From the NCBI GenBank assembly GCA_006226565.1, contig SBGO01000356.1:748-64747 (forward strand): 64,000 nucleotides of DNA, in the 5' to 3' direction. The stretch's first letter is position 1, and every line of letters starts with the position of its first letter. Positions 5,090 through 52,719 of this stretch are shown here, piece after piece. The position numbers and the translations under genes were made by a program. Source of the stretch: Deltaproteobacteria bacterium (lineage in GTDB: Bacteria > Myxococcota_A > UBA9042 > PHBI01). Below the pieces are notes generated by a model. The model saw only the letters and a list, made by a program, of their open reading frames with translations, ran no database searches and had not been told where the DNA came from.

Positions 5090-5166
5090 GCGCGGTTAGC
5101 TCAGCTGGATAGAGCGTCGGCCTCCGGAGCCGAAGGCCACAGGTTCGAATCCTGTACCGCGCACCA
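5090..5166 (+). tRNA. tRNA-Arg (anticodon CCG), 77 nt including 3' CCA
   Basis: Cloverleaf folded by hand: acceptor GCGCGGT/ACCGCGC, D-stem GCTC/GAGC, anticodon stem TCGGC/GCCGA with loop CTCCGGA, T-stem ACAGG/CCTGT, T-loop TTCGAAT. Confidence 0.9.
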
Positions 5167-6493
5167 ACTCGAAGCCGCCTTGGACAACGGTCCCCGTGAC
5201 CCCGTCGAAGGCGGCTTTTTCCGTGTTGGGGGCCCCTGTCTCCAAATCGTCTCCAAAGGTCGTCTCGGAGCCGACGGCGGCGCGGGCCTGCGCGACCTGC
5301 TCCGGCGACTCGGCGACGGCGGCCTCGGCGAAGAAGCGGAGGCGGTTGATCTCCTCGCCCAGGTAGTCGTCGCTCAGGTGCGAGTACAGGTCGATCGTGG
5401 TCTGGATGTCCTTGTGCCGCAGGACGCGCTGGACGAAGGCCAGGGACGCGCCGCGCATGACGAGGATCGACGCCGTCGTGTGCCGGAGGTCGTGCCACCG
5501 GATCGGGCGGACGTTGGCCTTGGGCCAGAGGCGGTGCCCGTGGACCGGGCAGCGGCGGAGGCGGTTGTCGGCGTGGGTCTCGGCGTGCTTGCAGCCCTTC
5601 TTGCGGCAGACGTGCGTGTAGCTGTCGGCGAGGCCGGCGCGGCCGAGGGCGCGGCGGACGACGTCGCAGAGGTCGGCGTCGCGGCGGAACGGGGAGCCGT
5701 CGGGCTGGGCGAAGACGAGGGCGCCGGGCGAGGCGTCGAGGGCGGCGCGCAGGAAGGGGACCAGCTCGTCGGCGATGGGGACGACGCCGTGGTGGCCGTC
5801 CTTGGTGACGGCGCGGTCGTGTGAGCCGCGGATGTAGATGCGGCGGGCCTCGAAGTCGATGTCCCGGCGCTTGAGGGCGAACAGCTCGCCTTTCCGCATG
5901 CCGGTGTAGATGGCTGTCGCGGCGAGCCACCGGTGGTGCGGCTCCATGACGGCCAGGACGGGCGCGACCTCGTTCGGGCGCAGGTAGGTCGGTGGGCGCT
6001 TGGAGACGCGCCGCCGAGTGACCTTCGCGACCGGGCTCACGCCGTGTACGCGGCCGACCTTCGCGGCGGCGTTGAACGCCCGCGACAGGAAGTTCCGTAG
6101 GTGGTTCACCGTCTGCGGGCTCAGGCCCTCGCGGTCCTTGCCGCGCAGGTAGCGCTCGATGACGGCCGGGGTCAGCTCGCGCAGCGGGAGGTCCCAGAGC
6201 TTCGCCGACGCCAGGTGCTTCTGAATCGTCCTCCGGTTGCTCTCGTCCGCCGCGAGCGAGGCGGACACCTCGTCGAGCCACCACTCCATGAGGTCGCCGA
6301 CGGTGTCCTGCGTCTTCTGCGGCAGGGGCTCGAGCCCCTCGCGCTGCCGGTCGGCGTGGAGCTGCAGCTCGGCGGCCATCCGCTCGGCGTCCACCTTGCG
6401 CTTGGCGAGGCGGACCTCCTTCCACCGGCCGTCGGAGCCCTTGTACTTCCCGTACCAGCCGTCGCGGCCCTTCTTCTTGAACACGGTCGTCAT
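5096..6493 (-). CDS. int: Tyrosine-type site-specific integrase (phage integrase family); C-terminal codons run through attL/tRNA sequence
   Basis: Start MTTVFKKKGRDGWYGKY at 6493; C-terminal catalytic region ...WHDLRHT...IDLYSH...; ORF reads toward tRNA. Confidence 0.85.
   Translation of the reverse strand: MTTVFKKKGRDGWYGKYKGSDGRWKEVRLAKRKVDAERMAAELQLHADRQREGLEPLPQKTQDTVGDLMEWWLDEVSASLAADESNRRTIQKHLASAKLWDLPLRELTPAVIERYLRGKDREGLSPQTVNHLRNFLSRAFNAAAKVGRVHGVSPVAKVTRRRVSKRPPTYLRPNEVAPVLAVMEPHHRWLAATAIYTGMRKGELFALKRRDIDFEARRIYIRGSHDRAVTKDGHHGVVPIADELVPFLRAALDASPGALVFAQPDGSPFRRDADLCDVVRRALGRAGLADSYTHVCRKKGCKHAETHADNRLRRCPVHGHRLWPKANVRPIRWHDLRHTTASILVMRGASLAFVQRVLRHKDIQTTIDLYSHLSDDYLGEEINRLRFFAEAAVAESPEQVAQARAAVGSETTFGDDLETGAPNTEKAAFDGVTGTVVQGGFELVRGTGFEPVAFGSGGRRSIQLS
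5120..5166 (+). repeat. attL: 47-nt copy of tRNA-Arg 3' part (direct repeat with 40372..40418)
   Basis: Exact 47-nt identity read in sequence. Confidence 0.75.
5171..5224 (+). terminator. Terminator-like hairpin downstream of tRNA (AAGCCGCC...GGCGGCTT followed by TTTTCC)
   Basis: Inverted repeat plus T-run read in sequence; loop unusually long. Confidence 0.35.
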
Positions 6494-6726
6494 CGGTCGC
6501 CCCTGCGGAGCGGGATCACGGCTCCGGCGTCGCTCTCGCTCCCACCCCGAGCGTACTCGACGACCTCGGCCGGGTCGAACCTGAGGTGCCCTCCGAAACG
6601 CAGATGGGGCAGATCGCCGCGTGCAGCGCGCTCGTAGACCCAGCTCCGGCTCACGCGCAGGTACTCCGCGACCTCGGTGGCCGTCCACAGCCGGGCCGAG
6701 CTCACAGGCATCGTCTTGGTCGTCAT
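6490..6726 (-). CDS. AlpA/excisionase-family HTH DNA-binding protein
   Basis: Start MTTKTMPVSS... with GGGAGGAAG RBS; ATGA overlap with int; HTH TEVAEYLRVSRSWVYERAARGDLP. Confidence 0.7.
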   Translation of the reverse strand: MTTKTMPVSSARLWTATEVAEYLRVSRSWVYERAARGDLPHLRFGGHLRFDPAEVVEYARGGSESDAGAVIPLRRGDR

Positions 6727-7194: not shown

Positions 7195-9174
7195 CTAATC
7201 ATTGTCGTCGTCCGGCCATAGACGCCTGGCGTCCACGACCACGACGCTGCGGCGTCTGCCGTGGATGGAACGCTGGACGCTGAACTTGCCGAGGCGGTGT
7301 TGCAGAAGAACACCGCTGTCACGCCAGTCGCGCATGAGTCCTTCGTACGCGAAGCCCTCCAGCAGCACGCGCTCGTGCAATGCGCGGGTCGGAAACGCGA
7401 CCCAGCCCTCCTCCTTGTGGTGCCATGCGATGATGTCGCGTTGCTCTGCGTTTGCTGTCCTGCTCGAGGCGTCCGCGACCTTGTGCGGATTCTCGTCGAC
7501 CCAGCTCGCGACGAGCTCGAGCCCCCGCGCGGCACCGCCGGCATCGTCAATGTCGTTGACGATGCTCGGCCATAGCGCGGTCCATGGCTCAGGGATCGTC
7601 CACCGGCCGTCCGAGTCATCGGGGAGGCTCAGCGCGCGCTCGGCGAGCCGCAGCGTCAGCTCCAGCACCGCCCGGTACCGGACCATGCGTGTTTCCTGAG
7701 AGGACTTCACGTTGGCGAGCAGCGACGACAGGATCTCTTCATACATCTCGGCCAACTCTGCGTCGCCAATCGTCATCATGTGCTGGACGAGGAGCGGCCC
7801 GGCGTGTCCGAAATTCGACTGGAGCGCCACCTCGACCTCAGCGATCAGACCGCGCGCAACCGGCACGTCGAGGCCGTCGAAGGGCGAGCCTTCGACCTCC
7901 ATCGTGCGGGTGCGCTCCCCGCCACCCTCGCTGAAGCTGACCGCAGGGGCTTCGCCCGTAGAGATGCACGTCGTCTGCCACGCGCCGGTCTGCCGCACCT
8001 GAGCGTCCGCGGTGCCTCGACCTCGGCCTCGCCCGTTGCCGATCGTCGACAACAGCGCCGGGACTGTCGTCTTGCCACGGGCGTCCTTCGTGTCGTCGAC
8101 GAACAGGGGAAGGTGCCGACGGCGGCCGATGGTCAGCTCAAGGTAGGTGTATGTGCTCGACCACGAGGTGACGAGAGAGTCCGGGCCCATGAACGGCTGC
8201 CCCCAGATCGACGCTGCGTAGCGAAGCGTCGTCGTCTTGCCCACCGAGGTCGTGCCGTGGAAGTCGACCACGAAGCTCGACGCACGAACGCCCAGGCGGA
8301 AGAGCAGCGGCGCCGCGAACGAAACGAGCAGCGCGAGCGTGATCCGCGGGAGGTACTTGACCCGATCGATCGCGTCGCGCCAGCGCCGGAACTCGCCCTC
8401 GGCCCGAAGCCCTTCGACCCAGCCATCCTCCGAAGTCGACTTCAGGCGGACCCAGCCTGCCGATGCCCATGTCGCGGGGTTCTTGTCATCGGGCTCGACG
8501 ATCGCACGCGGGCTGATGACCTTGTTTCCCCAGATGAAAGTCTCCCGATCAGCCCAGCCCATCGCGGTGGCTCCGCGAGCTGCGGGTAGCTCCGAAAGGT
8601 TGGCCTCCTCGTATGCACCGAGGAACTTGACGAGCCCGGCGGCGTTGTCGGTGCGAACCGGCAGCCCGTAGTCGGCGAGTTGCTTGATCAGTCGCGCATC
8701 GGCGAGGACGCTGCGGACCATGACCCGTTGCTGCCAGCCCGTCGCGCCACGCCACGCGAGCACCATGTGGTTGACGCCGGCATCGTCGACGACGCGGCCC
8801 AGCACCTGCACCGGGCACGACAGCACGGGGATCTCCTCGAACTCATAGCCCGCGGAAGGGTCGCCGTCTGTCGACTTCGATTTCGCCTCCCACCGAGCCA
8901 CGCCCCGGTCGCTGACTGCGTATCCCCTTGGCACGACGAGCTTGGGGGCCGGTGCGTCGGGGCATCCGCGTCCGACTCGGACGAGCGACCCATCCCCTAG
9001 ACCACCATCGCCCAAGGCCCCCGAGTACAGCTCGCGACGCGGCACGTTCTTCGCGTTCACGGTGCGATTTGCCATGGCGGCCGGCTTGACCCGGACAGCG
9101 TCCACGTCCGGCGTTGTCCGTTCCGTGTACGTGCCGTCCACAAAGCGATCGGCGTCGTCCCTACTGCTACTCAT
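7195..9174 (-). CDS. DUF927-like P-loop NTPase (phage/plasmid primase-associated helicase-like replication protein)
   Basis: Start MSSSRDDADRF at 9174 (8-nt overlap with upstream primase); Walker A GTTSVGKTT; architecture as in P4/PICI pri-rep modules. Confidence 0.7.
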   Translation of the reverse strand: MSSSRDDADRFVDGTYTERTTPDVDAVRVKPAAMANRTVNAKNVPRRELYSGALGDGGLGDGSLVRVGRGCPDAPAPKLVVPRGYAVSDRGVARWEAKSKSTDGDPSAGYEFEEIPVLSCPVQVLGRVVDDAGVNHMVLAWRGATGWQQRVMVRSVLADARLIKQLADYGLPVRTDNAAGLVKFLGAYEEANLSELPAARGATAMGWADRETFIWGNKVISPRAIVEPDDKNPATWASAGWVRLKSTSEDGWVEGLRAEGEFRRWRDAIDRVKYLPRITLALLVSFAAPLLFRLGVRASSFVVDFHGTTSVGKTTTLRYAASIWGQPFMGPDSLVTSWSSTYTYLELTIGRRRHLPLFVDDTKDARGKTTVPALLSTIGNGRGRGRGTADAQVRQTGAWQTTCISTGEAPAVSFSEGGGERTRTMEVEGSPFDGLDVPVARGLIAEVEVALQSNFGHAGPLLVQHMMTIGDAELAEMYEEILSSLLANVKSSQETRMVRYRAVLELTLRLAERALSLPDDSDGRWTIPEPWTALWPSIVNDIDDAGGAARGLELVASWVDENPHKVADASSRTANAEQRDIIAWHHKEEGWVAFPTRALHERVLLEGFAYEGLMRDWRDSGVLLQHRLGKFSVQRSIHGRRRSVVVVDARRLWPDDDND

Positions 9175-10264
9175 GACCCACCCCCGGTCGGGAGCGGTAC
9201 ACGTCGCAGCGCCGCCCAATCGTGTCGTAAATGCCTTTGAAGTAGCGCTCTCCCGCAGGATCGTTATCGGTGCGCACGACCACGCGCGAACCGCTCGGGA
9301 CGCGTGCGGCGATTTCGGGCGTCCACGAGCCGGCCACGATCCCGAAGACCGCCCACTCCGGCTGCGCGGCCCAGCAGAGGAAATCGATCTCGCCCTCCGC
9401 GATGGCGACATCGAGAGGCGCGGCGTCGTACTGCAAGACGATCCTCGCGCCCTCGTTCGCCATGACGGCCCCCTTCACGGTTGAGCCCCGAGGCGTCGGG
9501 CACTTCAGCCCGTGCGGCGGCGCGGCGTCGAGGCGGCACCAGCGTGCGCGCAGCGTCACCGGGCGCGGACCGCCTCCGTTCCGCGCGTCGTACACGTAGC
9601 CGGGCATGTACAACGGCACCATCAGGCGCCATCCGGTCCGGTGCCACGCGCGACCGGCGTGTTGAGCCCACGGGGGACGCAGGCCACGACGAAGGTCAAC
9701 GAGCGGTGCCCACGGCGGGAGCACCCGCGCCTCGTCCATCACCGTCAACTCGGCGAGCATTGCGTCGCTCACACCACGGCTGCGCAAGTAGGCGAGTACC
9801 TCGGTGTCGTCCCGGAGGGGCTGTCCGACCTGCCAGAGCGCGTCTACCTCAACGAGGGAGAGGCCACAGGGGGAGTCCGGATCGCGCGGTGCCGTCTCCC
9901 GCGGCTTCGCCCCTTGCACCTGCTTCGAGGCCGTCCACGGCGAATCCTGAAACGCCCTGCGACTCAACCCCATGAGATCGGCCGTGCGGCGTACGACCTG
10001 CTTGAAGTCGCGTCGGACATCCAGCCCATCCACGACGGCGACGAGGTCGAACGCGTCCCCACGGGCGTCGCAGCGGAAGCAGTACCATGTTCCTTCGTTC
10101 AAGCTGAACGTCGGTCGTCCGCCCTCCTTGCACTTCATGGGGCAGTAACCGCGCCAGTTCTCGCCGCGAGTGTTCACGAGCCGGACGCCGAGCGCCACGG
10201 CGAGCTCTCGGCAGTCGCAGTGTTCGCGCACCCGTCGCGCGTCGATGTCCGGACGGTCATTCAT
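9167..10264 (-). CDS. DNA primase, CHC2 zinc finger + toprim domain
   Basis: CHC2 motif YCPMKCKEGGRPTFSLNEGTWYCFRCDARGD; toprim VVVRTDNDPAGE. Confidence 0.8.
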   Translation of the reverse strand: MNDRPDIDARRVREHCDCRELAVALGVRLVNTRGENWRGYCPMKCKEGGRPTFSLNEGTWYCFRCDARGDAFDLVAVVDGLDVRRDFKQVVRRTADLMGLSRRAFQDSPWTASKQVQGAKPRETAPRDPDSPCGLSLVEVDALWQVGQPLRDDTEVLAYLRSRGVSDAMLAELTVMDEARVLPPWAPLVDLRRGLRPPWAQHAGRAWHRTGWRLMVPLYMPGYVYDARNGGGPRPVTLRARWCRLDAAPPHGLKCPTPRGSTVKGAVMANEGARIVLQYDAAPLDVAIAEGEIDFLCWAAQPEWAVFGIVAGSWTPEIAARVPSGSRVVVRTDNDPAGERYFKGIYDTIGRRCDVYRSRPGVGHE

Positions 10265-10468: not shown

Positions 10469-10802
10469 CGTTGAACCTCCTACAGCTCACGAGAACTAGC
10501 TGTACAAGCCGCCGACCGCTGGGTCACCGGGCGCTAAGTAGGCACTTGCCCTGAGGACCTAGCACCCACCAAGCAAGACCCCGCGCGCAAGACGGCGCTC
10601 AGAACGATGCACTGCGGCCTTGGCGATAGCGCGGGGCGGAGCGGTGGGGGGGCTTCGGCTCATGACGAGGGCGCCGAGGCCCCCGAGGCCGTTCGTGCAC
10701 AGGGACCCCTTGTGCGGGCTGCGTCTCGACCCGTCCCACCAATCACACCCTTGCGATACGCGTTCAAGCTCGACATCCTCGGTTCAGACCGAGGAGGAAC
10801 TC

Positions 10803-11861
10803 GTGGACAAGACCGGCGCAGACGACGCCCGCAGGCGTCTCGACGGGGCACAAGCGAGGCTAGATGCCGCTACCCGCCGGCGCTTGGCGCTCGAACTGTT
10901 CAACCACAGCACCGGAATCGGTGTGAAGGCAGAGGAGCTGGCAGCACGGGAATTCCCACTGACGCCGTGTCGGTCGTGGGACATACAGCATGCTTTCAGG
11001 TTCGCTGAGAGCGCCCGCAGCCGATTCATCGCCAGTGTGAAGGAATTCGAAGCCTCCAAGCGTCAGCTCGGCCGACTCGCGGGTGTCAAGCAATTGCTGG
11101 CCGATGTCGTGATGGACACCGAACCCGCGAGGGCCCACAGCGACGCCTGGACGACGGGGTGGCCGACGCTCAAGATCCACCACGCAGTCAAGCGGCTCCA
11201 ACATGAGTTGGCGAGGGTCGACTCCGAGGTCGTCGAAGCGGTGGCGTCACTGAACTGGCTCAACCATCGCGGCAACGTCGCGCGGCCGTTTGAGCCGGAT
11301 GTGGTGTTCCGCCGAGAGCTCGTGCGATGGCTCCTCGTCGTCCGCAGGGGACAGGCGATCGGGAGGGTCGACGCCTCGAAGCTGTGGAATACGCCCCCCC
11401 CGGCGGGCTTGGAGTCCGTCCCAACCTGGGCGGTCGCCGCGGAGACGAGCGTCGAGGACTTGGCGCGCCCCCACTGGCCTAGCCTGGCAACCGTCGATAG
11501 CGCTGGAGATATTCACCCGGAGTCGTTCAAGGCGATGCAGTACGAGGCTTTGAGGCGGCGCGTCGTCACCGAACAGCGACCTGGTGCATGGTTGACGCAG
11601 GAGGACGTGGCGTTGCTCCTCATCGCCGCGGACGTCGAGAAGGCGAGGCTGAGCGATGTATGCGAGGCTGTGCGACGCGAGTGGCGGGCCATCAAGGCGC
11701 GTGCATTCGAGGCCGAACAGACACCTGAGCGCATCAAGCCGCTGCTTCGCATCCAGCCCCGTCTGGAGCGCGGGCTGGCCAAGGAAAGTCGGAACCCGGT
11801 TCCTGATTCGCGCAATGGGACGGTGGGCATCGCAGCGGACACGTGTGCTGCCGAAGATTAG
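10803..11861 (+). CDS. Hypothetical protein (352 aa), first gene of a two-gene helicase module
   Basis: GTG start with GAGGAGGAA 5 nt upstream inside ORF 10620..11861; stop abuts ATG of next gene; lower GC3 than flanks. Confidence 0.5.
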   Translation: MDKTGADDARRRLDGAQARLDAATRRRLALELFNHSTGIGVKAEELAAREFPLTPCRSWDIQHAFRFAESARSRFIASVKEFEASKRQLGRLAGVKQLLADVVMDTEPARAHSDAWTTGWPTLKIHHAVKRLQHELARVDSEVVEAVASLNWLNHRGNVARPFEPDVVFRRELVRWLLVVRRGQAIGRVDASKLWNTPPPAGLESVPTWAVAAETSVEDLARPHWPSLATVDSAGDIHPESFKAMQYEALRRRVVTEQRPGAWLTQEDVALLLIAADVEKARLSDVCEAVRREWRAIKARAFEAEQTPERIKPLLRIQPRLERGLAKESRNPVPDSRNGTVGIAADTCAAED

Positions 11862-14507
11862 ATGCTGAGCGATTTCCAATACGACCCCGTCGAAGCCGCA
11901 AAACCCCTGCGCCCGTATCAGGTGGAAGCCGTCGCAGCGCTGTCCGCCGCGCTGGCGAACGACACGACGAGGCCGCAGCTCCTGCAGCTCGCGACGGGGG
12001 GCGGCAAGACCCGCGTGGCGAACGACATCGTGGCACGATGGATCCGCGAGCACGGTGGTCCCGTCCTGTGGATCACGAAGGATTGGCGGCTCCTGTACCA
12101 GGCTGCACGAGATGCCTCACGACGCCATCCTGGGCACATTCTGTACCGCATCGGGGGACGCCGGACCGCCTTGGGGGCACTTTCCGAGGTACCCCGCTGG
12201 TGGACTCCGACACGCAGCACCATCCTCTACTCGACATTCCAGACCGTGCTCCGCCGACTTGATGACGGGGTTCTGGACGGCGTGGCGCTTCTTGTCTGGG
12301 ACGAGTCGCATTGGGGCGAGAACGCGAAGGCAGGGAAGATTCTCACGCAGTGTGCGCGTCAGCGGCGCCCTGTTCTTGGCCTCACGGCAACAGCCCGATG
12401 GGATACGCGATACCACGTCGTCTATTCACGAAGCTTCTTTGACCTTGTCCGCGAAGGCTACCTCGCGCAGCCGGAGACGTGGCGGGTGCGGACGGGGCTA
12501 CGCTGGTCGCCCCGACTCTCGCCCGGTGACAGCGACTTTTCCAATGTATCCTTGCGGGTTCTCGCTGAATCAGCAGAGCGAAACGACGCGATCATCAGGA
12601 CGTACGCCGAGAACGCCGACGAGTTCCGGCGGACGATCGTCTTCGCCTGCAACATCGAGCACGCCAACGAACTCGCAGAACGGTTCTCCAGGGATGGCTT
12701 TGCGGCCCACGCCATCCACACGGAAAACGACGACGCAAAGAACAACGCAGCACTGGAGGGTTTCCGCAGAGGGCGAATCCACATCCTCGTCAACGTCGAG
12801 ATGTTGACGCACGGGGTCGACGTGCCAGATGCCAACACGATCTTCCTGTGCCGCCCGACCCGGAGCGACATCCTGTTCGCGCAGATGGTCGGGCGCGGAG
12901 CGCGCAGAGCCGAAGGCAAGACTCACTTCAACATCGTCGAGTTCACGGACAACCTCTCGAAGTACGGCGAGATCCTGCGGACAACCTCATTCTTCTTCGA
13001 TGGGGCCGGTTCAACATCCGCGGTGCCGCGTTTGCGTTCGCGCTCAGCGCCGCGCGTCTCGCAGCACGCGTTTGATCCGCGCGGCGCACCTCGCTGGATA
13101 CCAGACGACGACTCGTTGCCCGAGAGCTGCCGTGGCCTGTGGTACCGCGAAGGCCAGACCTTCGGGCTGGAGCTCGAACTGACCGAGAGCAGTGCGGCGA
13201 TTCCCAGGCCGCACACGGAGCGCTGGAGCGCCGTTGCCACTGCCCTGCTGGAGGCGCTTCGGCGCGCGATCGGCAGCGAGCTGGTCGCAGCCGCCGCGAC
13301 GCCTTGGTACGCGGGCGGTGGCTCCGGTGGCAAGGACTTCTCGGTCTGGAACGTCGAGTGGGACAGCTCTGCCGGGTGGGAGGTGACGAGCCGAATTCTG
13401 TCCGGCGAAGACGGGTTCATCGAGGTCGATGCTGCCTGCGCAGCGCTCGAAGAAGCGGCAGCGATCCACGGTGTACGCGTCAATTATCGGACTGGGACGC
13501 ACCTTCATCTCGGCTGGCGCCGTGACGACATCGGCGCCCTTCGGAATGCGATCAGGCTTGTGGGCTTGTTCGAGCCGGCGCTCGGAACGCTTGTGGCGCC
13601 GTCAAGGCTCGCGCGCTTTGCGGGCGGTGTCTACGACATCAGCACACCGAATCAGTACTGCCAGCCCGTCTCGAAGGCGGTGTCCGAGCACACGCTGCAG
13701 ACGTGCCATTCGGTCACAGAGCTGCTGCACGGGCTTTCGGACTATGGGCTACGATTCGCGACGTTCAACATCAAGCCTCTAGGGACGCACGGCACCGTCG
13801 AGGTGAGACTCCACAGCGGAACCATCGAGGCTCGCAAGGCGCTGGTATGGGTGAGCTTGTGGCAACAGCTCCTATGGGCGGCCGAGAACAAGACTGGAAT
13901 GCCAGAGTTGGAGTACAGGCAGGTCATAGTCCCCGACGCCGACATCATCGAGCTCGCGCGGGAGTGGCTCCCGGCCGCCATCCAGCCCCTGCAAGCGGCG
14001 TTCCTCGCGCGCGTCGCGCGGCGGCGGGCCGAGGTCGTTGACATGTGGCGGGCGCGTCCAGAGCTGGAGCCGTGGACGGGTTTCGCCGATTGCTGGCTCG
14101 AACTGGCCGTAGACGCGCACGGAGCCGAACCAGGAACGCTAGCCCCCCCGTTTCTCGATGCCGTATTCGACCTGCAGGTTCGGAGCGCCAATCATGGCAC
14201 ATGGCATGATGTCGCAGAGATGCTCGCCATGCTTGTTGTAGATGGCCTACTGGTTGAACCAGCGTTTCTTGAGGCTCCGCCGAACGGCCGTGCTGTCGTG
14301 ACTGCGCGAACGTCCGAGGGCATTGTCCCCGTGCTTCATGTGTGGGACCACCCAGTAGGAATGAAGTTCTGGGTGTACGCCACGCCACCGGGGGAAGATC
14401 TCGGACGGGGGCGTGCCGTCTACACCGAGGTCCGCGCTGCGGACCCATCGTGGTGGAGCCAACTGCTTCGGCTACTCAGCACCACACTCACGGAGGGCCC
14501 GGCGTAG
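11862..14507 (+). CDS. SF2 helicase (ResIII/DEAH-type: TGGGKT, DESH, helicase-C QMVGRGAR) fused to ~450-aa C-terminal domain of unknown function
   Basis: Helicase motifs I, II, VI read in translation; 881 aa. Confidence 0.8.
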   Translation: MLSDFQYDPVEAAKPLRPYQVEAVAALSAALANDTTRPQLLQLATGGGKTRVANDIVARWIREHGGPVLWITKDWRLLYQAARDASRRHPGHILYRIGGRRTALGALSEVPRWWTPTRSTILYSTFQTVLRRLDDGVLDGVALLVWDESHWGENAKAGKILTQCARQRRPVLGLTATARWDTRYHVVYSRSFFDLVREGYLAQPETWRVRTGLRWSPRLSPGDSDFSNVSLRVLAESAERNDAIIRTYAENADEFRRTIVFACNIEHANELAERFSRDGFAAHAIHTENDDAKNNAALEGFRRGRIHILVNVEMLTHGVDVPDANTIFLCRPTRSDILFAQMVGRGARRAEGKTHFNIVEFTDNLSKYGEILRTTSFFFDGAGSTSAVPRLRSRSAPRVSQHAFDPRGAPRWIPDDDSLPESCRGLWYREGQTFGLELELTESSAAIPRPHTERWSAVATALLEALRRAIGSELVAAAATPWYAGGGSGGKDFSVWNVEWDSSAGWEVTSRILSGEDGFIEVDAACAALEEAAAIHGVRVNYRTGTHLHLGWRRDDIGALRNAIRLVGLFEPALGTLVAPSRLARFAGGVYDISTPNQYCQPVSKAVSEHTLQTCHSVTELLHGLSDYGLRFATFNIKPLGTHGTVEVRLHSGTIEARKALVWVSLWQQLLWAAENKTGMPELEYRQVIVPDADIIELAREWLPAAIQPLQAAFLARVARRRAEVVDMWRARPELEPWTGFADCWLELAVDAHGAEPGTLAPPFLDAVFDLQVRSANHGTWHDVAEMLAMLVVDGLLVEPAFLEAPPNGRAVVTARTSEGIVPVLHVWDHPVGMKFWVYATPPGEDLGRGRAVYTEVRAADPSWWSQLLRLLSTTLTEGPA

Positions 14508-14606: not shown

Positions 14607-16205
14607 TCAAACTCGGGCTTCGCCACCTATTGTCGCAACGATGCGGCCCGCGAGAGCCTCGAACACGCTCGCGCTGGCGGGCGCGAATGATGCGTTCCCG
14701 CTGCCGGTTGGTCTGGTGATGACGCGCCCTGTCAAGCCATCGACTCCAATGACCTTCCGGCCGCTGCCGCCGAGTCGAATCTCGCTCGTGCCGTGGACGT
14801 AAGCCTTCCCAATCTGACGCCCCGAGCTCTCATCGTACACGGGGCTACCGGTGTCCACGCCGAAGGTCAGGTGGATTGCCCGATTTTCGACGAGCTGTTC
14901 GCCACGCGCAGACAGCTCGATACTGTCACCCCGAGCAACGAGTAGATCGCCGCGCACCAGTCCGTCGACCATGGCGTCGGCAGCTCGAGCAGACATCCCG
15001 AAAGCGGTCGAGGCAAGCTCGCGAATCTCGGCGCGGGAACGGCCGGTCGCGATCGCCGCATATGACGCCAACTGTTGCAGGGCTCCGACGAGGAACGGGC
15101 GCGCGTCCGCCGTCCCAGGGGGCAATCCCCCGGAGATCTGTGCCACGAGCTTCGCGTATTCCACCGTCCGATCGAAGAGGCCGCCGACGCACACCACACG
15201 GCGTAGCCCGCTGCGACGTCCAGCGCGCCCCGCACGCTGTAGGAACGAGGAAACCCCCGATGGTGCGTCGAAGAGCACGCAGGTATCCACATCCCCGATG
15301 TCGATTCCCACTTCGAGCGTCGTCGTCGCGACGACGAGCCCGACCCGTGCCTTCCGCAGGCGCTCCTCGACGGCCCGTCGTCCGCTGCTGGACAGCGATG
15401 CGTGATGAGCCATGCAATTCTCGCGAAGAAATCCTGTCGAGAGCCAGCCGCAGAGATCCTCGACGCGCCGCTTGCTTCTTGCGAAGCCGATCAACTTTCG
15501 GCTGCCAAGCTCGCGGAGGAAGTCGACAAACGCCTCTCCTCCCTCGCGTCCGGCCCGAACCCAATCGTAGTACGAGACATCCAGTCCCTGCTGGTCCCCA
15601 TCCTCGATGATGATTGGATCTCGCAAGAGCCGCGAGCGCGATGGCAAAGTGAGGTCAGGGATCGTCGCTGAGATACCTATCCTCCGCGCCTTCACCCCCG
15701 ACATGTCGAGGCGCGCTAGCAGCCCCGCGGTCTGAGTACCTCTCGGCCCCTTGAGGAAATCGTGTATTTCGTCGATGAGCACTTCGGTGATGTCGCTGAG
15801 TTCACCAGGACGGCGGCATAGGGTGATATCGAGCCCTTCGGGAGTGCGGATCAGGACGTCGGTCACTTCGTTGTCCCGCACGGTGTTCTTGTCAGACGTG
15901 GCGACGTCGAGCCGCAGCCCCAGTGCTTCGAGGACGGGCGCCATGCGTCGGTGAAGGTCGGACGCGAGGGCGCGCGTCGGAGAGAGTACCAGCGCGCGCG
16001 TCTTCCCCCCTTCGCGTGGCCGATCTAGCAATGCCTCGACCACTGGCAGGAAGGCAGCTTCAGTCTTGCCGCTCCCTGTCGATGCCGTGATCAAACCATC
16101 ACGGTCTGTCCGAAGGCGCTCCAGCGCTTTCTCCTGCACTGGTCGCATCTTTCCACCGAAGCGGCCGAAGAATGCACGCTGTATCCGCTCATGGTTCGCA
16201 GTCAC
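14607..16205 (-). CDS. DExH-box (Lhr/BrxHI-like) helicase
   Basis: Motif I ASTGSGKTEAA, II VLIDEIHDF, III SAT, VI QRAGRAGR; GTG at 16205 gives GTGA overlap with upstream gene; alternative ATG at 16148 has GGTGGA RBS. Confidence 0.75.
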   Translation of the reverse strand: MTANHERIQRAFFGRFGGKMRPVQEKALERLRTDRDGLITASTGSGKTEAAFLPVVEALLDRPREGGKTRALVLSPTRALASDLHRRMAPVLEALGLRLDVATSDKNTVRDNEVTDVLIRTPEGLDITLCRRPGELSDITEVLIDEIHDFLKGPRGTQTAGLLARLDMSGVKARRIGISATIPDLTLPSRSRLLRDPIIIEDGDQQGLDVSYYDWVRAGREGGEAFVDFLRELGSRKLIGFARSKRRVEDLCGWLSTGFLRENCMAHHASLSSSGRRAVEERLRKARVGLVVATTTLEVGIDIGDVDTCVLFDAPSGVSSFLQRAGRAGRRSGLRRVVCVGGLFDRTVEYAKLVAQISGGLPPGTADARPFLVGALQQLASYAAIATGRSRAEIRELASTAFGMSARAADAMVDGLVRGDLLVARGDSIELSARGEQLVENRAIHLTFGVDTGSPVYDESSGRQIGKAYVHGTSEIRLGGSGRKVIGVDGLTGRVITRPTGSGNASFAPASASVFEALAGRIVATIGGEARV

Positions 16206-17413
16206 CGCTTGCGGCCGCCGTGGTACCTTCGGTGATCCATCGCGGCAATCGCGTGCCGGACTATCTCGCGCGTCCCGTCGTTGACATGCTGCGACTTGAC
16301 TTCCTTGACGATCTCCTGGGCAGGAAACGCTACCTTGGTCCCATGTGCAGACTTGTACAAGTCGTGGATTTGACCGACGAGGGCTTCGATGCCGTGGTGA
16401 TCGAACGGGGTGAGCTGGAGCGGTGTGGCGCACACGTCTCGACTAATCGACCGTGCCAAGCCATAGGCGTGCGTGAAAGCCATGACAACGTGGATCCGTG
16501 ATGGGCTCTGCCCAAGATACCGCGGAGAGTAGGAATCGCGGTAGTGCTTGAGGCCACTCGTGTCCATGTTGCTCGCTGCCAGCGCCAAGCCGACCATGAC
16601 GTCCCAGGCCCGTCCAGCCCGATACGACGTACTCGCCCATTCGGTCCGCTCGGCCTCGTCGAGGATCATGACCAATCCTGGGACGCCGGCGTGTGCGAGT
16701 TCATGCGCCAGCCAGTTGATCTTATTCACCGCGTGGTTTGCCGCAGTCATCGCGTTGGGAACGTCTACATGCAAGTGGGCGGCAAGATCTGGTAAGTACT
16801 GAAAACCGAACCTCGCCCAGGTCACCGGAATGTCTCGCTGAAGACGGTCAAACCGCTTCATGATCGCATTCGGTCCGGGGAACTCACGGTAGACACTCTC
16901 GAGAAGGTCATTCTCGGCGGTGAAGTGAAAGCCGCCCCGGCGAAGCGCTCGCAGGAGAATTCCGAGCGCGTCTGAGCCCGCCAGCCTTCGGCCGTCAATG
17001 CGCACGGCGAATGCGCGAGGAAGGGCCATGACCAAGGATCTCGGGTGCTCGGCCGAATTGCTGGACGACCCCATCTCCAGTCGTATGACCGCGTAACCCT
17101 CTTCTTCGGCGCGCAGTGCCAATAGCTCGCACAGATGCGACTTGCCGCTACCGTACTGGCCGACAAGCACCTGGGTGGAGCCGCCGGGACTCCTGCGAAA
17201 GCCGTTGAGAAGTTGGGCGAGTTCAGCATCGCGACCGTATGTGGCGTGTCGGACAACGGCCCGATTCACCACGCCGGCACGCATGGCTTCGAGTGCGGCC
17301 CTCGCCTCGAAGCGACTCGCGAAATCTTCGGTCCTCTTGATGGAGTTCGCGAGCCTGGTTCTCTCCATCAGAAAAGAACGTAGGAGTTCCGCCATCTCAC
17401 GCCGGCCACTCAT
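16202..17413 (-). CDS. P-loop NTPase, BrxD-like (DUF2791-like) paralog B
   Basis: Walker A GQYGSGKSHL, Walker B LVMILDEAE; GGAGGCGAGAAGG RBS. Confidence 0.75.
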   Translation of the reverse strand: MSGRREMAELLRSFLMERTRLANSIKRTEDFASRFEARAALEAMRAGVVNRAVVRHATYGRDAELAQLLNGFRRSPGGSTQVLVGQYGSGKSHLCELLALRAEEEGYAVIRLEMGSSSNSAEHPRSLVMALPRAFAVRIDGRRLAGSDALGILLRALRRGGFHFTAENDLLESVYREFPGPNAIMKRFDRLQRDIPVTWARFGFQYLPDLAAHLHVDVPNAMTAANHAVNKINWLAHELAHAGVPGLVMILDEAERTEWASTSYRAGRAWDVMVGLALAASNMDTSGLKHYRDSYSPRYLGQSPSRIHVVMAFTHAYGLARSISRDVCATPLQLTPFDHHGIEALVGQIHDLYKSAHGTKVAFPAQEIVKEVKSQHVNDGTREIVRHAIAAMDHRRYHGGRKR

Positions 17414-17440
17414 GCCTTCTCGCCTCCGTCGTGGAGTTCG

Positions 17441-18682
17441 CTACCTCGCGTCCGTCACGAAGTTCGAGATTTCGGAGTCGCTAGGCGGACCGGCACTGCG
17501 CGCATGGTACAGGGCCTTGATGAACGTCTTGACGAACATCCGCCGAAAAGAAACATCGACGGTCTCGCGTAGCACGGCCCGTGCGACACGCTCAGCAATC
17601 CGAGCGCCGTCGCCGTCCGAAAGCTTCGGACTCAGACCGGCTGCATTGAACAGGGCAAGCAGCCGCTCGCCCAACGCGACGCAGAATCGCGTCTTGCTTC
17701 CGTCATCCTGGTAGCGATCGTCCAGAACGATCCGCGGCGCCGGAGGCAAGGTGGGGAAGCCTGTCGTCCGGACCCGCTGGTCGAGGGCCTGGTTGTCGGC
17801 GCTCAACATGCTCTTGAATTCGGTCCACCCCGGAATCGAATAGAGGAACATGACTCCGGGCCAGTCCGAGCCCTTGAGGGTCTCGTTGATGATCTGCACG
17901 AGGTTGTTCGAAGCGGTCTTTCGCTCCTTCGTGTTTGCGATGGACAGGGAGCGGTCCCCTTCGTCCATGATGAGAAGCAACCCCGGATAGCCGATCTGTC
18001 GGAGCCACACAGCGAGGGTGCGAATCGCCAGGGAACCACTGCGCACGTCGACCTTCTCGAGAACCCCCTTCCTCTTCAGCGCCGGGGCGATCATGCCCGA
18101 GTTGAGGTAGACCATGACCTCGTCGTATGTGGTGCTGTCACCCGACGCAACCGCGAGACCTGCGAGTTGGATGGCGATCCGCATGCTCGACAGTGGCAGG
18201 TCCCCCGCCTTTTGGAGCACCGACTGGGCGTACTGGACGCTATCACCGTCCCAGTCTGCAGGTGGTTCGACCCATGTCCGAATGATCTCTCCGATGCCGC
18301 GAGCGTTCGGGTGCCCTGGGCGCGGTGCCGTCAGCTGCTTGACGACGCTACTGTAGATGAGATCGAAGCGCGTAAGCGGGCAGGAGTCCTTGTTGAGCTC
18401 AATGAAAGCGCTTGCGAACCCGTGGCGGTGGGCTAGGCGCTCTACCGCCCGCAAATAGTGGGTCTTGCCACCACCGTAGTACGCTTCGACGAGCTTGAAG
18501 GTCCCCTGGTCCGTGTGGCGCAGAAGCCCATCCTCTCCGAAGTACTCCTCCTCGAACACGCGCAAATCGTCATCGATGCCAACCGAGATGAGGTTCGTCA
18601 CGCTGGGCGACGGTGCGACTCCGCCCACCAAGCTCTCGATCGCAGCGCGTGCATCATATCGATTGAGATCGGAAATGGTCAT
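17441..18682 (-). CDS. P-loop NTPase, BrxD-like (DUF2791-like) paralog A
   Basis: Walker A YYGGGKTHYL, Walker B LLLIMDEGD; AAGGAGA RBS; ATGA overlap with upstream gene. Confidence 0.75.
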   Translation of the reverse strand: MTISDLNRYDARAAIESLVGGVAPSPSVTNLISVGIDDDLRVFEEEYFGEDGLLRHTDQGTFKLVEAYYGGGKTHYLRAVERLAHRHGFASAFIELNKDSCPLTRFDLIYSSVVKQLTAPRPGHPNARGIGEIIRTWVEPPADWDGDSVQYAQSVLQKAGDLPLSSMRIAIQLAGLAVASGDSTTYDEVMVYLNSGMIAPALKRKGVLEKVDVRSGSLAIRTLAVWLRQIGYPGLLLIMDEGDRSLSIANTKERKTASNNLVQIINETLKGSDWPGVMFLYSIPGWTEFKSMLSADNQALDQRVRTTGFPTLPPAPRIVLDDRYQDDGSKTRFCVALGERLLALFNAAGLSPKLSDGDGARIAERVARAVLRETVDVSFRRMFVKTFIKALYHARSAGPPSDSEISNFVTDAR

Positions 18683-19494
18683 CGGTCGGTCTCCTTGCGT
18701 TTCGCGCTGAGATTGATCGCGGCGATTGGGCTGTGCTGCGACGGCTTCCGTGGATTGTCGTTCTTGGGAATGGAGACGTAGCGCGCTGGGTCTTTCGTGA
18801 CGTGTTGGGTCGCCCCCCTGAACGTCAGCTCCGGGTAGCCTTCGTCACGTCCATCGATAGCAAGACGCTGGATTCGCGCCAGGACATACCCGAACGCCTC
18901 GCGGGTGAGTTTGATCTTTGGAAATCCCGTGCCCGTGCCCAACTCCCGGCGTGCATCTTTTCCATAGATGCAGAACAGCCGCACCAGATTGACCGGGTGC
19001 TCCGTGGGCTCCGAGTATACTGCGTTCAGCCAATCGAGCCCGGCCGTGAGTCCCTTTGCTGCGTCCTGGACAAGCAGGAGAGCGTTCTCGATTCCCCTAA
19101 TAATCTCGAGCGCCGCTTCCGCCAGCTCTTCGGCACGCGTCGCTTCGATCTTCGCGACCGAGATGGTATCCAAGACCGTCAGATTCCATCGGCTCTCCCG
19201 CTCTTCATGCATCTCAACGCAGCCGAATGTTATCCGTGGCGGCCTGTACTCGAAGAAGCACTGTTCCCGCTCGGCGATCTGGCGCAGGTTCTTTCCTAGG
19301 TCCCGCCGCAGGTCCTCGGCCCGCTGCGAAGCGTCCGAGATCCAGCCATTCACGACTCCATCTGGAATGCCGAGAGCTTCTTGGACCCTGCGCGCGGCGC
19401 CCTCGAATCCAGAGACGTCACCCCGCTCCTTGAGAGCTTCCAAGGCAGACGCAACTTCATCGGTCTTGCGCGAGAAATCGACGGAAACGCGCAT
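18679..19494 (-). CDS. Hypothetical protein (271 aa), first gene of the BrxD-like/helicase module
   Basis: Start MRVSVDFSRKTDEV inside ORF 18679..19665; coupled to next gene. Confidence 0.55.
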   Translation of the reverse strand: MRVSVDFSRKTDEVASALEALKERGDVSGFEGAARRVQEALGIPDGVVNGWISDASQRAEDLRRDLGKNLRQIAEREQCFFEYRPPRITFGCVEMHEERESRWNLTVLDTISVAKIEATRAEELAEAALEIIRGIENALLLVQDAAKGLTAGLDWLNAVYSEPTEHPVNLVRLFCIYGKDARRELGTGTGFPKIKLTREAFGYVLARIQRLAIDGRDEGYPELTFRGATQHVTKDPARYVSIPKNDNPRKPSQHSPIAAINLSAKRKETDR

Positions 19495-20035
19495 CTTCGG
19501 ACCTAGCCCCCCTCGGCCTTTGGTGCTCAATCTGATCCTCGTTGTACTCTGGTTCTGTCGGGTTCCGTCCGTGAAGGCGGTACCCTCGCGGACGTTGGCA
19601 TCTTGGTGCTGACGCGCTCGGCGCTCGCAGCTGCGAGGCGACCACGAGACGCGCTCGCGTGTCAACGACCCGGAGTCTCCGAAATGTTACCAACAAGCGG
19701 ATGGCTGGTCGCTTTCGACCTCCAATCTGGTCGGATCGGGACCAGGCCAGCGGGAGCGAGTGTTGGGGCTGCATCCAGCGGGACCCGACGTTCTCGGACC
19801 AAGGGGGTCACGGTGCTGGCTGCAGCGACCTAGAGCCAAGCATCGCGATCGCGGAGCGAAGACGTTGAACCGTGGCGGGGGTGTCGGAGCGTCAGTACGT
19901 CGGAGACTCGGATTATGGGAACGACATCGAAGCCGTGCGGGAATGAGTTCCGCGAGCGTGCCGTGCTACGCTGATTGAAGACTCGGCTCCGCAAGCTCCA
20001 TGCCGACACAGCTGCCAGTAGCTGTCCTGGCTCGG

Positions 20036-20806
20036 TCATGACATTGCCGACACGGCCTTCAGCGTGACGGCGAGCTCGTACTCGAGCAACATGACATCGG
20101 CGACCTGAGACACCGCGTAGCGGATCCGGTCCGTGATGTGACCGGCGACGATGACTCCCCGGACCGGCTTGCCAACGGCCAGATGGTGGACGACCCAGCC
20201 CTTGTAGCGAAGCACCTGGCCGACGACCGCGTCCGGCCCCTTGCTGACCTTCAGCTCGATCACAACCAGCCCCTCGTTCGCGTCCTGGGCCAGGATGTCG
20301 ATGCGACCAACGGGCGTGGTGTACTCGACTCCGGCGTTCCCGTCTTCGTCGGCGTATAGGGACAGCCCCGGCTCGATGAGCTCCAAGTGGTCCGCTAGGT
20401 AGTCTCGGAGGTGGGCCTCAGCCGCAAAGATGCCCGACTCCGAAGGCACCGGCTCGGGCGCGTCAATGCGCCGGACCAGGTTGCGGCCATCTTCTTGCTC
20501 GACGATCTCCCAATCGCCGTGCTTCGCGGAATCGAAGAGCTCGAGTTCGCCCCGGGTCGGCCGGAACAGGAAGTCGTACTGGAGGTTCGCCTTCCGGGGC
20601 TTCTTGTTCTCCGGGTAGTGGACCCGCGAAGCGTGGTTCACCGTGCAAACGATGATCTGACAGGAGATGGTGTTCCGGTTGGTATCCGGCCAGCGCTCGA
20701 GGATCCAGTTTCGTACGGCGACGTTTGTCGTGGACGGTCCCAACTCGTCCACGGCGCGGCGGATCATCTGCCAGACGTAGGGGCGGTCTTCCGCGTTGGC
20801 GGTCAT
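20036..20806 (-). CDS. PD-(D/E)xK nuclease, NucS/DUF91-like C-terminal fold (GRIDILAQD...VVIELKVSKG)
   Basis: Nuclease motif in translation; AGGAGAG RBS. Confidence 0.65.
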   Translation of the reverse strand: MTANAEDRPYVWQMIRRAVDELGPSTTNVAVRNWILERWPDTNRNTISCQIIVCTVNHASRVHYPENKKPRKANLQYDFLFRPTRGELELFDSAKHGDWEIVEQEDGRNLVRRIDAPEPVPSESGIFAAEAHLRDYLADHLELIEPGLSLYADEDGNAGVEYTTPVGRIDILAQDANEGLVVIELKVSKGPDAVVGQVLRYKGWVVHHLAVGKPVRGVIVAGHITDRIRYAVSQVADVMLLEYELAVTLKAVSAMS

Positions 20807-20871: not shown

Positions 20872-21321
20872 TCAGTCGTCCTTCCATGCGAGGCGCTTCG
20901 GCTCCTCCTCGCCCCTCATCACGCGAACGAGGAAGTCGTAGTCGTCCTCCGTGACCTCGATGATGCCGCCCTTGCAGTAGATGTAGTTCGACGGTGTCGT
21001 CTTCATTTCGCTCGGGAAGCACGACAGCGACCACAGAGTGTCGGCCACCGGGCGGGCGAAGCCGGACTCGGTGAAGGCCACATTGCAGCGGTGCTCATAG
21101 ACCTTGCCGCCCGAGAAGATGGGCGTGTCGTCCACGAAGGTCTCGCCAGCAACCGTGCCGATGCCGTCGAGCTGCTGCACCCGCGAGAGGTACGCGAGGA
21201 ACGGGTCGCCGACGGAGAGCTCCTTCAAGAGCTTTCGGGCGCCTGTGCGGACGCCGATGGTGCGGTGCGCCTTCACGTCCCCGTACGTCTCGGGGCGGAA
21301 CATCATCAGCCAGTATTTCAT
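20872..21321 (-). CDS. EVE (PUA-like) domain protein
   Basis: Start MKYWLMMFRPETY with GGAGGG RBS; EVE-typical N-terminal motif; ~149 aa. Confidence 0.65.
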   Translation of the reverse strand: MKYWLMMFRPETYGDVKAHRTIGVRTGARKLLKELSVGDPFLAYLSRVQQLDGIGTVAGETFVDDTPIFSGGKVYEHRCNVAFTESGFARPVADTLWSLSCFPSEMKTTPSNYIYCKGGIIEVTEDDYDFLVRVMRGEEEPKRLAWKDD

Positions 21322-21443
21322 GTCGTCCCTCCGTCGAATTGGCGCCTCAGCAACGCCATGCACAGTGAGTCAGCCTAGACGGCGTTGTGCTTCGCCTCTG
21401 GAGCTGCAGGATGCCGGGTCCCGAGTCTCTCGCCGTACGCACA

Positions 21444-36561: not shown

Positions 36562-37757
36562 CTATTCGGCCGCCGATACGATGAAGGACACGGTTGACGG
36601 TGGTCGCGCGGGTGCCGTGGCGCGGTCGTTCACAAGCTCGGGGGCGGGGCCGACTGCGCGCGGGTGAGCGGCCGCCCAAGGATCGGGAAGCGGCACGTCG
36701 AGCATGGAATCGGGCCAGCGTCGAGTACAGTCGAGCTGCTGGGCAGTGGCGTCCTTCTCGACCCGATAGAGCTTGCCGATGAGCTGGATGGGCCAGGCAG
36801 CGCGCGGCTCGGTGTCCTTGAGCTGGAAGAACTTCCTTCGGGCGTGCGCCCAGCACCCGACCTCTGACGCCGAGGCGACCTTGCCGTTGAAGAGCTGGTC
36901 GAAGGTGTTGCTGGCGTCGGCCTGGACGTAGCCGGTCCGGCCGGCGAAGAAGCCCCATGGCCCGTCCTCGCCGGTCCCGGTCTTCGCGTACTCGAAGACG
37001 GTCCAGCGGCGGTCGCCGACGTAGCACCACATCGTGCCGCGACGAATGCCCTCGGGATGGTCGCGGTCGAGGACCTTCAAGCCGCTCGCGTCAGTCTGGA
37101 CGAGGTGTGCCGCATGGACGCGCTCGGTGATGCGGCGGACGAGCGGCTCGACGAGGTCGGCGACCGCGGCGACCTGGTCGCTGAGCGTGGACACTGGGAT
37201 GTTGACGCCACGGCGCGCGTAGATGCCTTGCAGGCGGTGCAGCGGCAGGTGGTCCATGTACTTTGAGCACAGGAGTCCGGGCTCGGCGAAGCCGCCTGGG
37301 ACGACCTTGTCGGGGCCGGCCGCGGTCGTGACCCCGTCCTTGCAGTGCGGGCAGGCGTACTTGGCGACGATGTGCCGCTTGACGATGAACTGAGCGGGCA
37401 CGAGGTCGAGCGTCTCGCTGACGTCTCGTCGCCGATGTGCTGGAGCGCGCCGTGACAGGCCGTGCATGTGCGCCCGCCGGCGTCGACGTCGTAGCGATGC
37501 TCGTCGCGCGACAGGTGCTCGGGGAGCTTGCGCCGCTTGGGCTTCCACTTCGGCGGGCCCTCGTCGGTCGGCACGACGCTGCCGGTGTCGTCCTCGTCGA
37601 CCGGCACGTCTTCGTCGATAGGCTCGCTGCTCTCGTCGCCGCCGGCCTGAGCCAACATCAGCGAGAGCTGGGCGCTGTCGACCTTCTCGCTACGTCGACC
37701 GGCGTTCGCGCGCCGCTCGATGAGGAAGCGCAGCTCCAGCTCCGTCTCGCGGCCCAT
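36562..37757 (-). pseudogene. IS66-family transposase (TnpC) remnant, frameshifted near 37440-37550 and 3'-truncated
   Basis: N-terminal zinc-finger part in ORF 37077..37757; DDE part (LPLHRLQ, MWCYVG, GCWAHARRKF) in ORF 36562..37548 in another frame. Confidence 0.7.
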
Positions 37758-52397: not shown

Positions 52398-52719
52398 GGC
52401 GCGACGATCTCACGTTCGTCCGCGCCCAACAACCCGCCCCACTGCGGCGCGGTGTCACGGCGGTCCAGGGCTCGCGGGAGGTCCGCGTCGCGCCCTGTCC
52501 GCGGTGCGTGCTCGTCCCGGCAGCGCGATCCATGGTGCGCCGCATTGCGCAAAAGGTCGTTTTCTCATGGCTTATTGTCGGGCACGGGCGCGCCGGCGTG
52601 TTGCGCATGCGGCATGGGCGCTGCTAGTCTTCAGGCGCGGGCACACAGCTGAACTCTCTCCTTGCCATGTCGACCTGGAGCGGCGACGGCCGGTACCGCG
52701 TCATGGCCGGGAGCTGCCC

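Follow-up and report, generated by a model that had tools for sequence, protein, structure and literature searches.

A four-gene cassette with two BrxD-like ATPases and an Lhr-type helicase, a candidate mobile defence module related to Shango and BrxD-BrxHI

ATPases of the Pfam family PF10923 (BrxC_BrxD, formerly DUF2791) are found together with DExH helicases in Shango and in bacteriophage exclusion (BREX) loci of type 2 (Pgl) and type 6. Shango (SngA-SngB-SngC), of which a Klebsiella plasmid (NZ_CP047708) carries an example, has been shown experimentally to protect against phage (10.1101/2022.05.11.491447; 10.1101/2022.11.11.516204). In BREX, BrxD and BrxHI are described as a tightly linked pair, proposed to be a helicase loader and its helicase, and BrxD is classed as an AAA+ ATPase of the ORC/Cdc6 clade that has no DNA-binding domain of its own (PMC12839542). 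Here we describe a cassette of four genes, designated A to D, which occupies positions 14607-19494 of a DNA stretch from a Deltaproteobacteria bacterium (Myxococcota_A; UBA9042; PHBI01), and which combines two ATPases and a helicase of these kinds with a lead protein of a different sort. The window, that is, the whole stretch analysed, comprises the 64,000 nt from position 748 to 64,747 of contig SBGO01000356.1 (assembly GCA_006226565.1). We read the cassette as an NTPase-helicase module that is portable and has spread by horizontal transfer; it would be an as yet nameless branch of the Shango/BrxD-BrxHI group and most likely acts in anti-phage or anti-plasmid defence. We give this reading a probability of about 0.55.

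The open reading frame listing and the sequence itself show that the segment is filled by four co-directional genes in the order A-B-C-D, preceded by a long non-coding spacer:

19494..18679, minus strand: gene A, 271 aa, with an ATG start (NCBI TNF32501.1)
18682..17441, minus strand: gene B, 413 aa; its ATG overlaps the TGA of gene A (ATGA) (NCBI TNF32500.1)
17413..16202, minus strand: gene C, 403 aa, starting 27 nt past the stop codon of gene B (NCBI TNF32499.1)
16205..14607, minus strand: gene D, 532 aa; its GTG overlaps the TGA of gene C (GTGA)
19495..20035, minus strand: non-coding spacer of 541 nt, 5' of gene A, read directly from the sequence

The GTG start of gene D is supported because residues A11 and G18, which precede the first in-frame methionine, are conserved in its homologues. 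A preliminary description, made from the sequence alone, had seen here four coupled genes standing beside a type-3 BREX locus and lacking a methyltransferase or phosphatase of their own; we recovered the same coordinates and both overlaps, PADLOC assigned the neighbouring locus to type 3, and scans with Pfam, PADLOC and NCBIfam found neither enzyme in the cassette. The products of A, B and C are annotated by NCBI as hypothetical proteins of a Deltaproteobacteria metagenome-assembled genome (MAG). The spacer, which sets the cassette apart from an EVE-domain gene, a NucS-like gene and the BREX locus, probably holds the cassette's own promoter. A scan of it for the sigma-70 consensus, which is uninformative for this high-GC organism, gave nothing convincing and it matched no Rfam family; likewise, promoter, terminator and Rfam scans of the cassette region yielded nothing informative.

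The products of genes B and C belong to the same ATPase family. B scores 87.9 bits against PF10923 and C 59.9 bits, in its N-terminal region only (gathering score 22.2), with an additional 37 bits for C to AAA_16. Among PADLOC models, B aligns to those for BrxD along about 300 residues (9.4e-25) and also matches SngB (3.3e-12), the BrxD model outscoring that of SngB by 86 to 44 bits; C too matches BrxD and SngB. This bears out the assignment as BrxD-like and excludes a non-defence housekeeping family for the ATPases, which match only the defence-linked PF10923. Neither protein, however, reaches the 350-bit cut-off of the NCBIfam equivalog BREX_BrxD (NF033438; 84.3 bits for B and 41.5 for C). 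The Walker A and B motifs quoted in the preliminary description are present in both proteins, as YYGGGKTH and LLLIMDEGD in B and as GQYGSGKSH and LVMILDEAE in C, and they are invariant in homologues, as judged for B, C and D on 11-15 homologues per gene. Invariance extends to GGGKT of Walker A and DE of Walker B across 15 homologues of B, and to G-Y-G-x-G-K, D252, E253 and residues R265, R382, R386 and R396 in C; conserved arginines are R244, R303 and R381 in B and R265, R382 and R386 in C. Both ATPases are therefore predicted to be catalytically intact.

That B and C are clear paralogues, as initially claimed, is true of their profiles and not of their pairwise alignment: the comparison of the B-family and C-family profiles with hhalign is full-length (336 columns, 99.3% probability, E 7.8e-21), whereas BLASTP aligns the two proteins over 94 aa only (26% identity, E 2e-5). 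In a bootstrapped neighbour-joining tree, three clades were each recovered at 97%: the B-type proteins, the C-type proteins, and true BrxD with SngB plus a BrxD-like protein from Deinococcus. The last of these contains neither B nor C and is the sister of the B clade (80% bootstrap), while the B-type and C-type clades each include the remote variants L025 and L026 described below. A recent duplication giving rise to B and C was ruled out, B being nearer to BrxD/SngB than to C. These clades indicate that the pairing of two ATPases is old and has its origin in neither BREX-2 nor Shango; judged from profiles and tree, B and C are true but ancient, deeply diverged paralogues of the PF10923 family.

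Gene D is predicted to encode a superfamily 2 (SF2) DExH helicase of the Lhr/BrxHI/SngC type, as had been supposed. Its product matches the Pfam domains DEAD (1.3e-28) and Helicase_C (1.2e-18), carries motifs I (STGSGKT), II (DEIH), III (SAT) and VI (QRAGRAGR), and has all of the SF2 motifs Q, I, Ia, II (DExH), III, V and VI, which are invariant across 11 homologues. The top PADLOC models are SngC (3.3e-59) and then BrxHI (2.5e-57), and the best sequence matches in the PDB are to mycobacterial Lhr (5v9x, 7lhl). The protein is about equidistant from SngC and BrxHI, to which it scores 124-135 bits, compared with about 200 bits between BrxHI and SngC. It aligns with residues 10-523 of the 702 of BrxHI and ends near position 524 of the 698 in the BrxHI model, lacking the C-terminal ~180 aa that make up the BrxHI/Lhr-type C-terminal domain. 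The NCBIfam Lhr equivalogs score far below their cut-offs (TIGR04121, 172 bits against 850; PRK09751, 87.5 against 1496). By these comparisons, B and D fall outside the BrxD/SngB and BrxHI/SngC groups, respectively.

For the lead protein A, searches of Pfam, PADLOC and NCBIfam (E<=0.1 for the first two) and of 72,556 plasmids gave no match. An exhaustive profile search of 1.84 billion proteins retrieved 43 cluster representatives, nearly all of 250-285 aa, and by its sequence A is a member of a new small protein family, whose gene lies immediately upstream of B in every locus found. The structure prediction that the preliminary description had proposed for this protein gave a confident full-length AlphaFold2 model from a 38-sequence alignment (predicted local distance difference test score 93.4, predicted template modelling score 0.88). 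The model runs from three N-terminal helices through a five-stranded beta-meander, which bears a conserved PPxVxxGC...WxLSVLD motif, and a helical hairpin to a C-terminal helix/strand unit (residues ~140-262) that is winged-helix-like; the coherent winged-helix signal came solely from a truncated model, and winged-helix matches of similar Z span many unrelated families. The invariant R198 starts the putative recognition helix and a conserved GATQxxTxxPxRY motif lies in the wing. The whole model had no neighbour in the PDB (best Foldseek E 0.59), and the portion formed by beta-meander and hairpin was unmatched in the PDB fold comparison. The sole invariant residues are P86, G91, R198, A228, P243 and P248. 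A nuclease or other enzyme was considered for A and rejected, since there is no invariant constellation of acidic, histidine and lysine residues; a TerB/SngA-like protein was also rejected, with no matches to hidden Markov models (HMMs), an hhalign probability of 0.4% against the Klebsiella SngA and no TerB among the fold matches.

The four genes travel together. The A-B-C-D order recurs in every related locus with a long enough contig, at 27-83% protein identity. In loci found through B alone (L009-L019 and L020-L024), A is the next gene upstream of B, and C and D come after B if the contig extends far enough; the junctions are tight across loci, with overlaps or gaps of less than 80 nt. This conserved arrangement is far beyond chance and the cassette is an obligate unit. 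In total there are about 14 distinct loci and about 50 homologues of B with more than 44% identity, all of them from metagenomes or MAGs, the search with B having yielded three loci in 185,579 species genomes and eight in JGI metagenomes. Hosts are rare and patchily distributed (Deltaproteobacteria/Myxococcota, Competibacteraceae and Deinococcales MAGs). A phage or viral origin was rejected, there being no relatives of the cassette in 2.9 million viral contigs of IMG/VR or in 50,697 phage genomes (INPHARED). Two more distant loci, in which B is 31-35% identical, repeat the layout of lead gene, B-type ATPase, C-type ATPase and helicase:

L025, 9165-14606: remote variant, lead protein of 279 aa and helicase of 654 aa, near Ser/Thr kinase-FGE-sulfatase and peptidase S66 genes
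L026, 9110-14785: remote variant, lead protein of 294 aa and helicase of 663 aa, near gyrA and a ParA-like gene

Their lead genes show a weak but colinear relationship to the A profile (hhalign 48% and 34%). These four-gene variants indicate that the cassette family is wider than the clade of the window; the surroundings of both do not look like defence.

Shango is the closest stand-alone analogue of the cassette. Both consist of a lead gene, a PF10923-type ATPase and an Lhr-like DExH helicase without a nuclease, both stand alone, and the validated Shango is found in defence islands, as the cassette often is. They differ in that Shango has three genes and one ATPase, whereas the cassette has four genes and two ATPases in all loci, including the remote variants. 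The lead protein SngA, of 769 aa, contains TerB-N and TerB domains, in contrast to the 271 aa of A, which give no TerB signal. D falls short of SngC by about 200 aa, and its match to the SngC profile is confined to positions 11-363 of 720, in the helicase core; and B and D, unlike SngB and SngC, lie outside the groupings that these form with BrxD and BrxHI.

BREX types 2 and 6, examined in Polaromonas and Streptomyces loci, likewise encode a PF10923 ATPase (BrxD) and a DExH helicase (BrxHI) side by side and with translational coupling. These two genes come after pglZ in a full pglW/X/Y/Z locus, a setting in which the cassette never lies; compared with them, the cassette has the paralogue C and the lead gene A in addition, and D is without the C-terminal domain of BrxHI. 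A second home outside BREX for a BrxD-like/BrxHI-like pair, besides the cassette, is a plasmid module of Deinococcus psychrotolerans:

L027, NZ_CP034187, 38023-52345: genes for an 851-aa LRV/HEAT-repeat protein, a 451-aa protein of unknown kind, a BrxD-like ATPase and a helicase, and a small HNH gene

This module is mostly tandemly duplicated. Its ATPase and helicase group with true BrxD and BrxHI (194-298 bits), not with B and D (68 and 113 bits); it has, unlike the cassette, a single ATPase and an HNH nuclease, and its lead proteins are unrelated to A.

We found no description of this cassette in the searchable literature (subscription-only papers being outside that scope); the PADLOC 2.0 models and NCBIfam leave all four genes unknown or generically labelled, and no current defence HMM set calls it. 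The preliminary description had offered it as either an uncharacterised accessory or sensor module or an independent undescribed system, two readings between which the present data do not decide; it had missed Shango, whose SngC is the top PADLOC model for D, and the ATPase-helicase core is of an already known kind. What is new here is the lead-protein family A and the four-gene arrangement; the core had already been recognised.

The neighbours of the cassette vary between loci, and for that reason the cassette is a portable unit and not a fragment of a type-2 or type-6 BREX. In agreement with this, no PglW was seen at any cassette locus and no copy lies inside a type-2/6 BREX locus among the loci found, so the possibility that it is always embedded in such loci is excluded. 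Apart from the window, where a type-3 BREX locus (BrxA, PglZ, a BrxHII-type helicase, PglXI and BrxC) lies upstream, the contexts are as follows:

P0010 contig: BrxB/BrxC genes (BREX-1-like) directly downstream of the cassette
L003, L009 (=L013), L012 and L014: DISARM genes directly upstream, with DrmC in all four, DrmB in L003, L009 and L014, and DrmA in L014
L004/L005/L018 (1-8265): cassette within an Hma operon, between the methylase gene hmaB and the HEPN-DUF499 gene hmaC, on the same strand, with gaps of 28 and 75 nt
L020/L021: cassette after hsdR-S-M (type I restriction-modification, RM), with toxin-antitoxin and CHAT genes nearby
L001: Zorya-like genes beside the cassette
L024: VWA/PP2C/kinase genes (TerY-P-like) beside the cassette
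L011: 70-kb Deinococcales contig with housekeeping neighbours, including RelA/SpoT and phosphoglucomutase
L017: cassette flanked by recombinase-, transposase- and ParA-like genes

Hma (DUF499) is also known as "BREX-related type 1". The links to BREX-3, BREX-1, DISARM and Hma are separate events. In the neighbour-joining tree the loci linked to DISARM group together as a single clade (88-100% bootstrap), which indicates one association event; in all four, drmC is the gene immediately before A, and in L009 gene A starts 10-45 nt after it. DrmC was considered as a fifth cassette gene and discarded: where present, it sits after DrmB (and DrmA in L014) as in DISARM, and the window, L001, L004 and L011 have no copy of it. 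The cassette of L020/L021 is bracketed by a 62-aa remnant of DrmC upstream of A (8948-9127) and a 41-aa remnant resembling the C-terminus of BrxA downstream of D (14212-14334), a pattern suggesting that an ancestral copy lay between DISARM and BREX, which have since disappeared or given way to type I RM.

In the window, the cassette and BREX-3 share a low-GC island with a tRNA-Arg gene, a tyrosine integrase gene, DUF927/CHC2 primase genes and IS66, and the EVE gene, the DUF7669/NucS_C gene and the 541-nt spacer lie between BREX-3 and the cassette. At its other end, D converges on a helicase-amidoligase gene that ends at 14507. The remaining features of the surroundings are:

5090-5166: tRNA-Arg(CCG), abutting the tyrosine integrase gene (5096-6688)
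within 10620-14507, plus strand: 881-aa fusion of an SF2 helicase (ResIII/Helicase_C) and Amidoligase_2 (PF12224), an unusual architecture
20036-20806, minus strand: 256-aa DUF7669 + NucS_C nuclease-like protein, matching the PADLOC candidate PDC-S02
20872-21363, minus strand: 163-aa EVE-domain protein, between brxA and the cassette
30139-32166, minus strand: 675-aa protein between pglXI and brxC, with HATPase_c_4 and a weak PADLOC match to Aga_SIR2-PNTD

By its GC content (0.58-0.68 compared with 0.72-0.75 outside), the defence region at ~6000-40000 is an integrative island, with genes at 7195-10264 for a DUF927 helicase-primase and a CHC2 zinc-finger protein. Just upstream of brxC, at the place expected for brxF, lie pieces of IS66 transposase (36562-37757), and the best PADLOC model for the BREX-3 helicase is PDLC02500, labelled BrxHI|BrxHII. 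The 675-aa gene may correspond to the Schlafen/histidine-kinase-like add-ons of BREX loci (PMC12839542). The EVE and DUF7669/NucS_C genes, neither of which is conserved beside the cassette in other loci, may be a restriction pair directed against modified bases. A 413-aa protein without family match precedes the helicase-amidoligase gene with zero gap (11861/11862), and the two could possibly form a separate conflict system. Beyond the island, the high-GC flank holds a very long open reading frame (3229 aa, 52339-62028, plus strand).

From homology and context we infer a defence function for the cassette, together with complex formation, a loader role and a target on invading DNA. The proposal of DNA recognition, loader and motor is made because Shango is validated and because BrxD is described as ORC/Cdc6-type and proposed to load BrxHI. 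In such a scheme, A would bind invader DNA, or a DNA-associated cue, through its putative winged-helix domain; B and C would assemble with it into a hetero-oligomer that serves as an ATP-dependent switch or loader; the complex of A, B and C would recruit or activate the Lhr-type DExH helicase D on the invader DNA; and translocation or unwinding by D would block replication or expose the DNA to nucleases encoded elsewhere. The likeness to ORC/Cdc6-Cdt1-MCM loading is one of analogy only, without sequence relationship, D being a monomeric-type SF2 DExH helicase and not a ring-shaped AAA+ helicase. The defence reading is supported by the obligate character of the unit, the homology to validated defence components, contexts like those of mobile defence systems, and the invariant Walker and SF2 motifs. 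Several points weigh against it. The cassette has no recognisable nuclease, toxin or membrane-protein effector, as is also the case for Shango; all its members are "hypothetical proteins" from MAGs or metagenomes; L011, L017 and L022 adjoin housekeeping, metabolic or mobile-element genes instead of defence genes; and the ORC/Cdc6 class of BrxD rests on a published description (PMC12839542). In addition, the cassette is often tightly linked to methyltransferase-based systems and may for that reason not be autonomous.

This last point is the basis of the main rival explanation, which we regard as less likely: the cassette would be a plug-in accessory of methylation-based systems (BREX, DISARM, Hma/DUF499 and type I RM), with the role that BrxD-BrxHI have in BREX types 2 and 6, such as putting a helicase onto unmodified DNA that the partner recognises. 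Eight distinct loci, namely the window, P0010, L003, L009, L012, L014, L004 and L020, lie directly beside or inside such systems, and the partners come from four different families, which indicates that several associations arose independently, even if those with DISARM, as one clade, count as a single event; moreover, brxD overlaps pglZ just as tightly in BREX-2. However, L011, L017 and L024 are without BREX, DISARM, Hma or RM over 8-10 kb on each side, two unrelated genes and the 541-nt spacer separate the cassette from brxA in the window, and Shango, the stand-alone relative, works by itself. Adjacency alone is also no proof of dependence, because independent systems commonly nest in or beside BREX and RM loci (PMC12839542). 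A more ambitious form of the defence reading, which we consider doubtful, holds that A-B-C-D is an unnamed anti-phage system in which a winged-helix protein and two ancient paralogous ATPases of ORC/Cdc6 type load an Lhr-type helicase on foreign DNA, as an immune counterpart of ORC/Cdc6-Cdt1 loading and a portable add-on for BREX, DISARM, Hma and type I RM, which would explain BrxD-BrxHI in BREX types 2 and 6.

The component logic of ORC/Cdc6, Cdt1 (with its winged helix) and a helicase would also suit a module by which a mobile element is replicated or maintained, with two ORC/Cdc6-type initiators, a winged-helix protein and a helicase starting the replication of an island or plasmid, and the copy in the window is indeed on an integrative island, while that of L017 has recombinase-, transposase- and ParA-like genes on its flanks. 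We nevertheless consider this quite unlikely: the island of the window already has DUF927 helicase-primase and CHC2 primase genes, other copies sit inside defence operons (within Hma or after drmC) and not by integrases or origins, the searches of viral contigs and phage genomes for the cassette, and of plasmids for A, returned nothing, and the winged-helix matches of similar Z are spread over many unrelated families. To our knowledge, members of PF10923 are known only from defence systems. Still more unlikely, in our judgement, is a host system for DNA repair or the processing of RNA-DNA hybrids, comparable to Lhr-MPE or ligase-associated Lhr and present in islands by coincidence. Repair helicases of Lhr type are the best matches of D in the PDB and NCBIfam (5v9x, 7lhl; TIGR04121), and some loci have housekeeping neighbours, as RelA/SpoT and phosphoglucomutase in L011; but the TIGR04121 score is far under the curated cut-off (172 versus 850), the cassette contains no MPE, ligase or nuclease partner, its distribution is extremely sparse and patchy across phyla, and most of its neighbourhoods are defence loci.

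Both Shango and the BrxD-BrxHI of BREX-2/6 have a validated or accepted part in defence, and the cassette bears on how they work. It represents a third and older branch of the ATPase-helicase partnership, with a different and structurally tractable lead protein that carries a putative winged-helix domain and with an obligatory second ATPase, and it moves among methylation-based systems of four kinds. If its role in immunity is true, the cassette would add to the known repertoire a system missed by current annotation tools and would provide a compact four-protein model for the way in which phage DNA is sensed and stopped by PF10923 ATPases with Lhr-like helicases; from it one could also learn whether modules of this kind work alone or boost BREX and DISARM.

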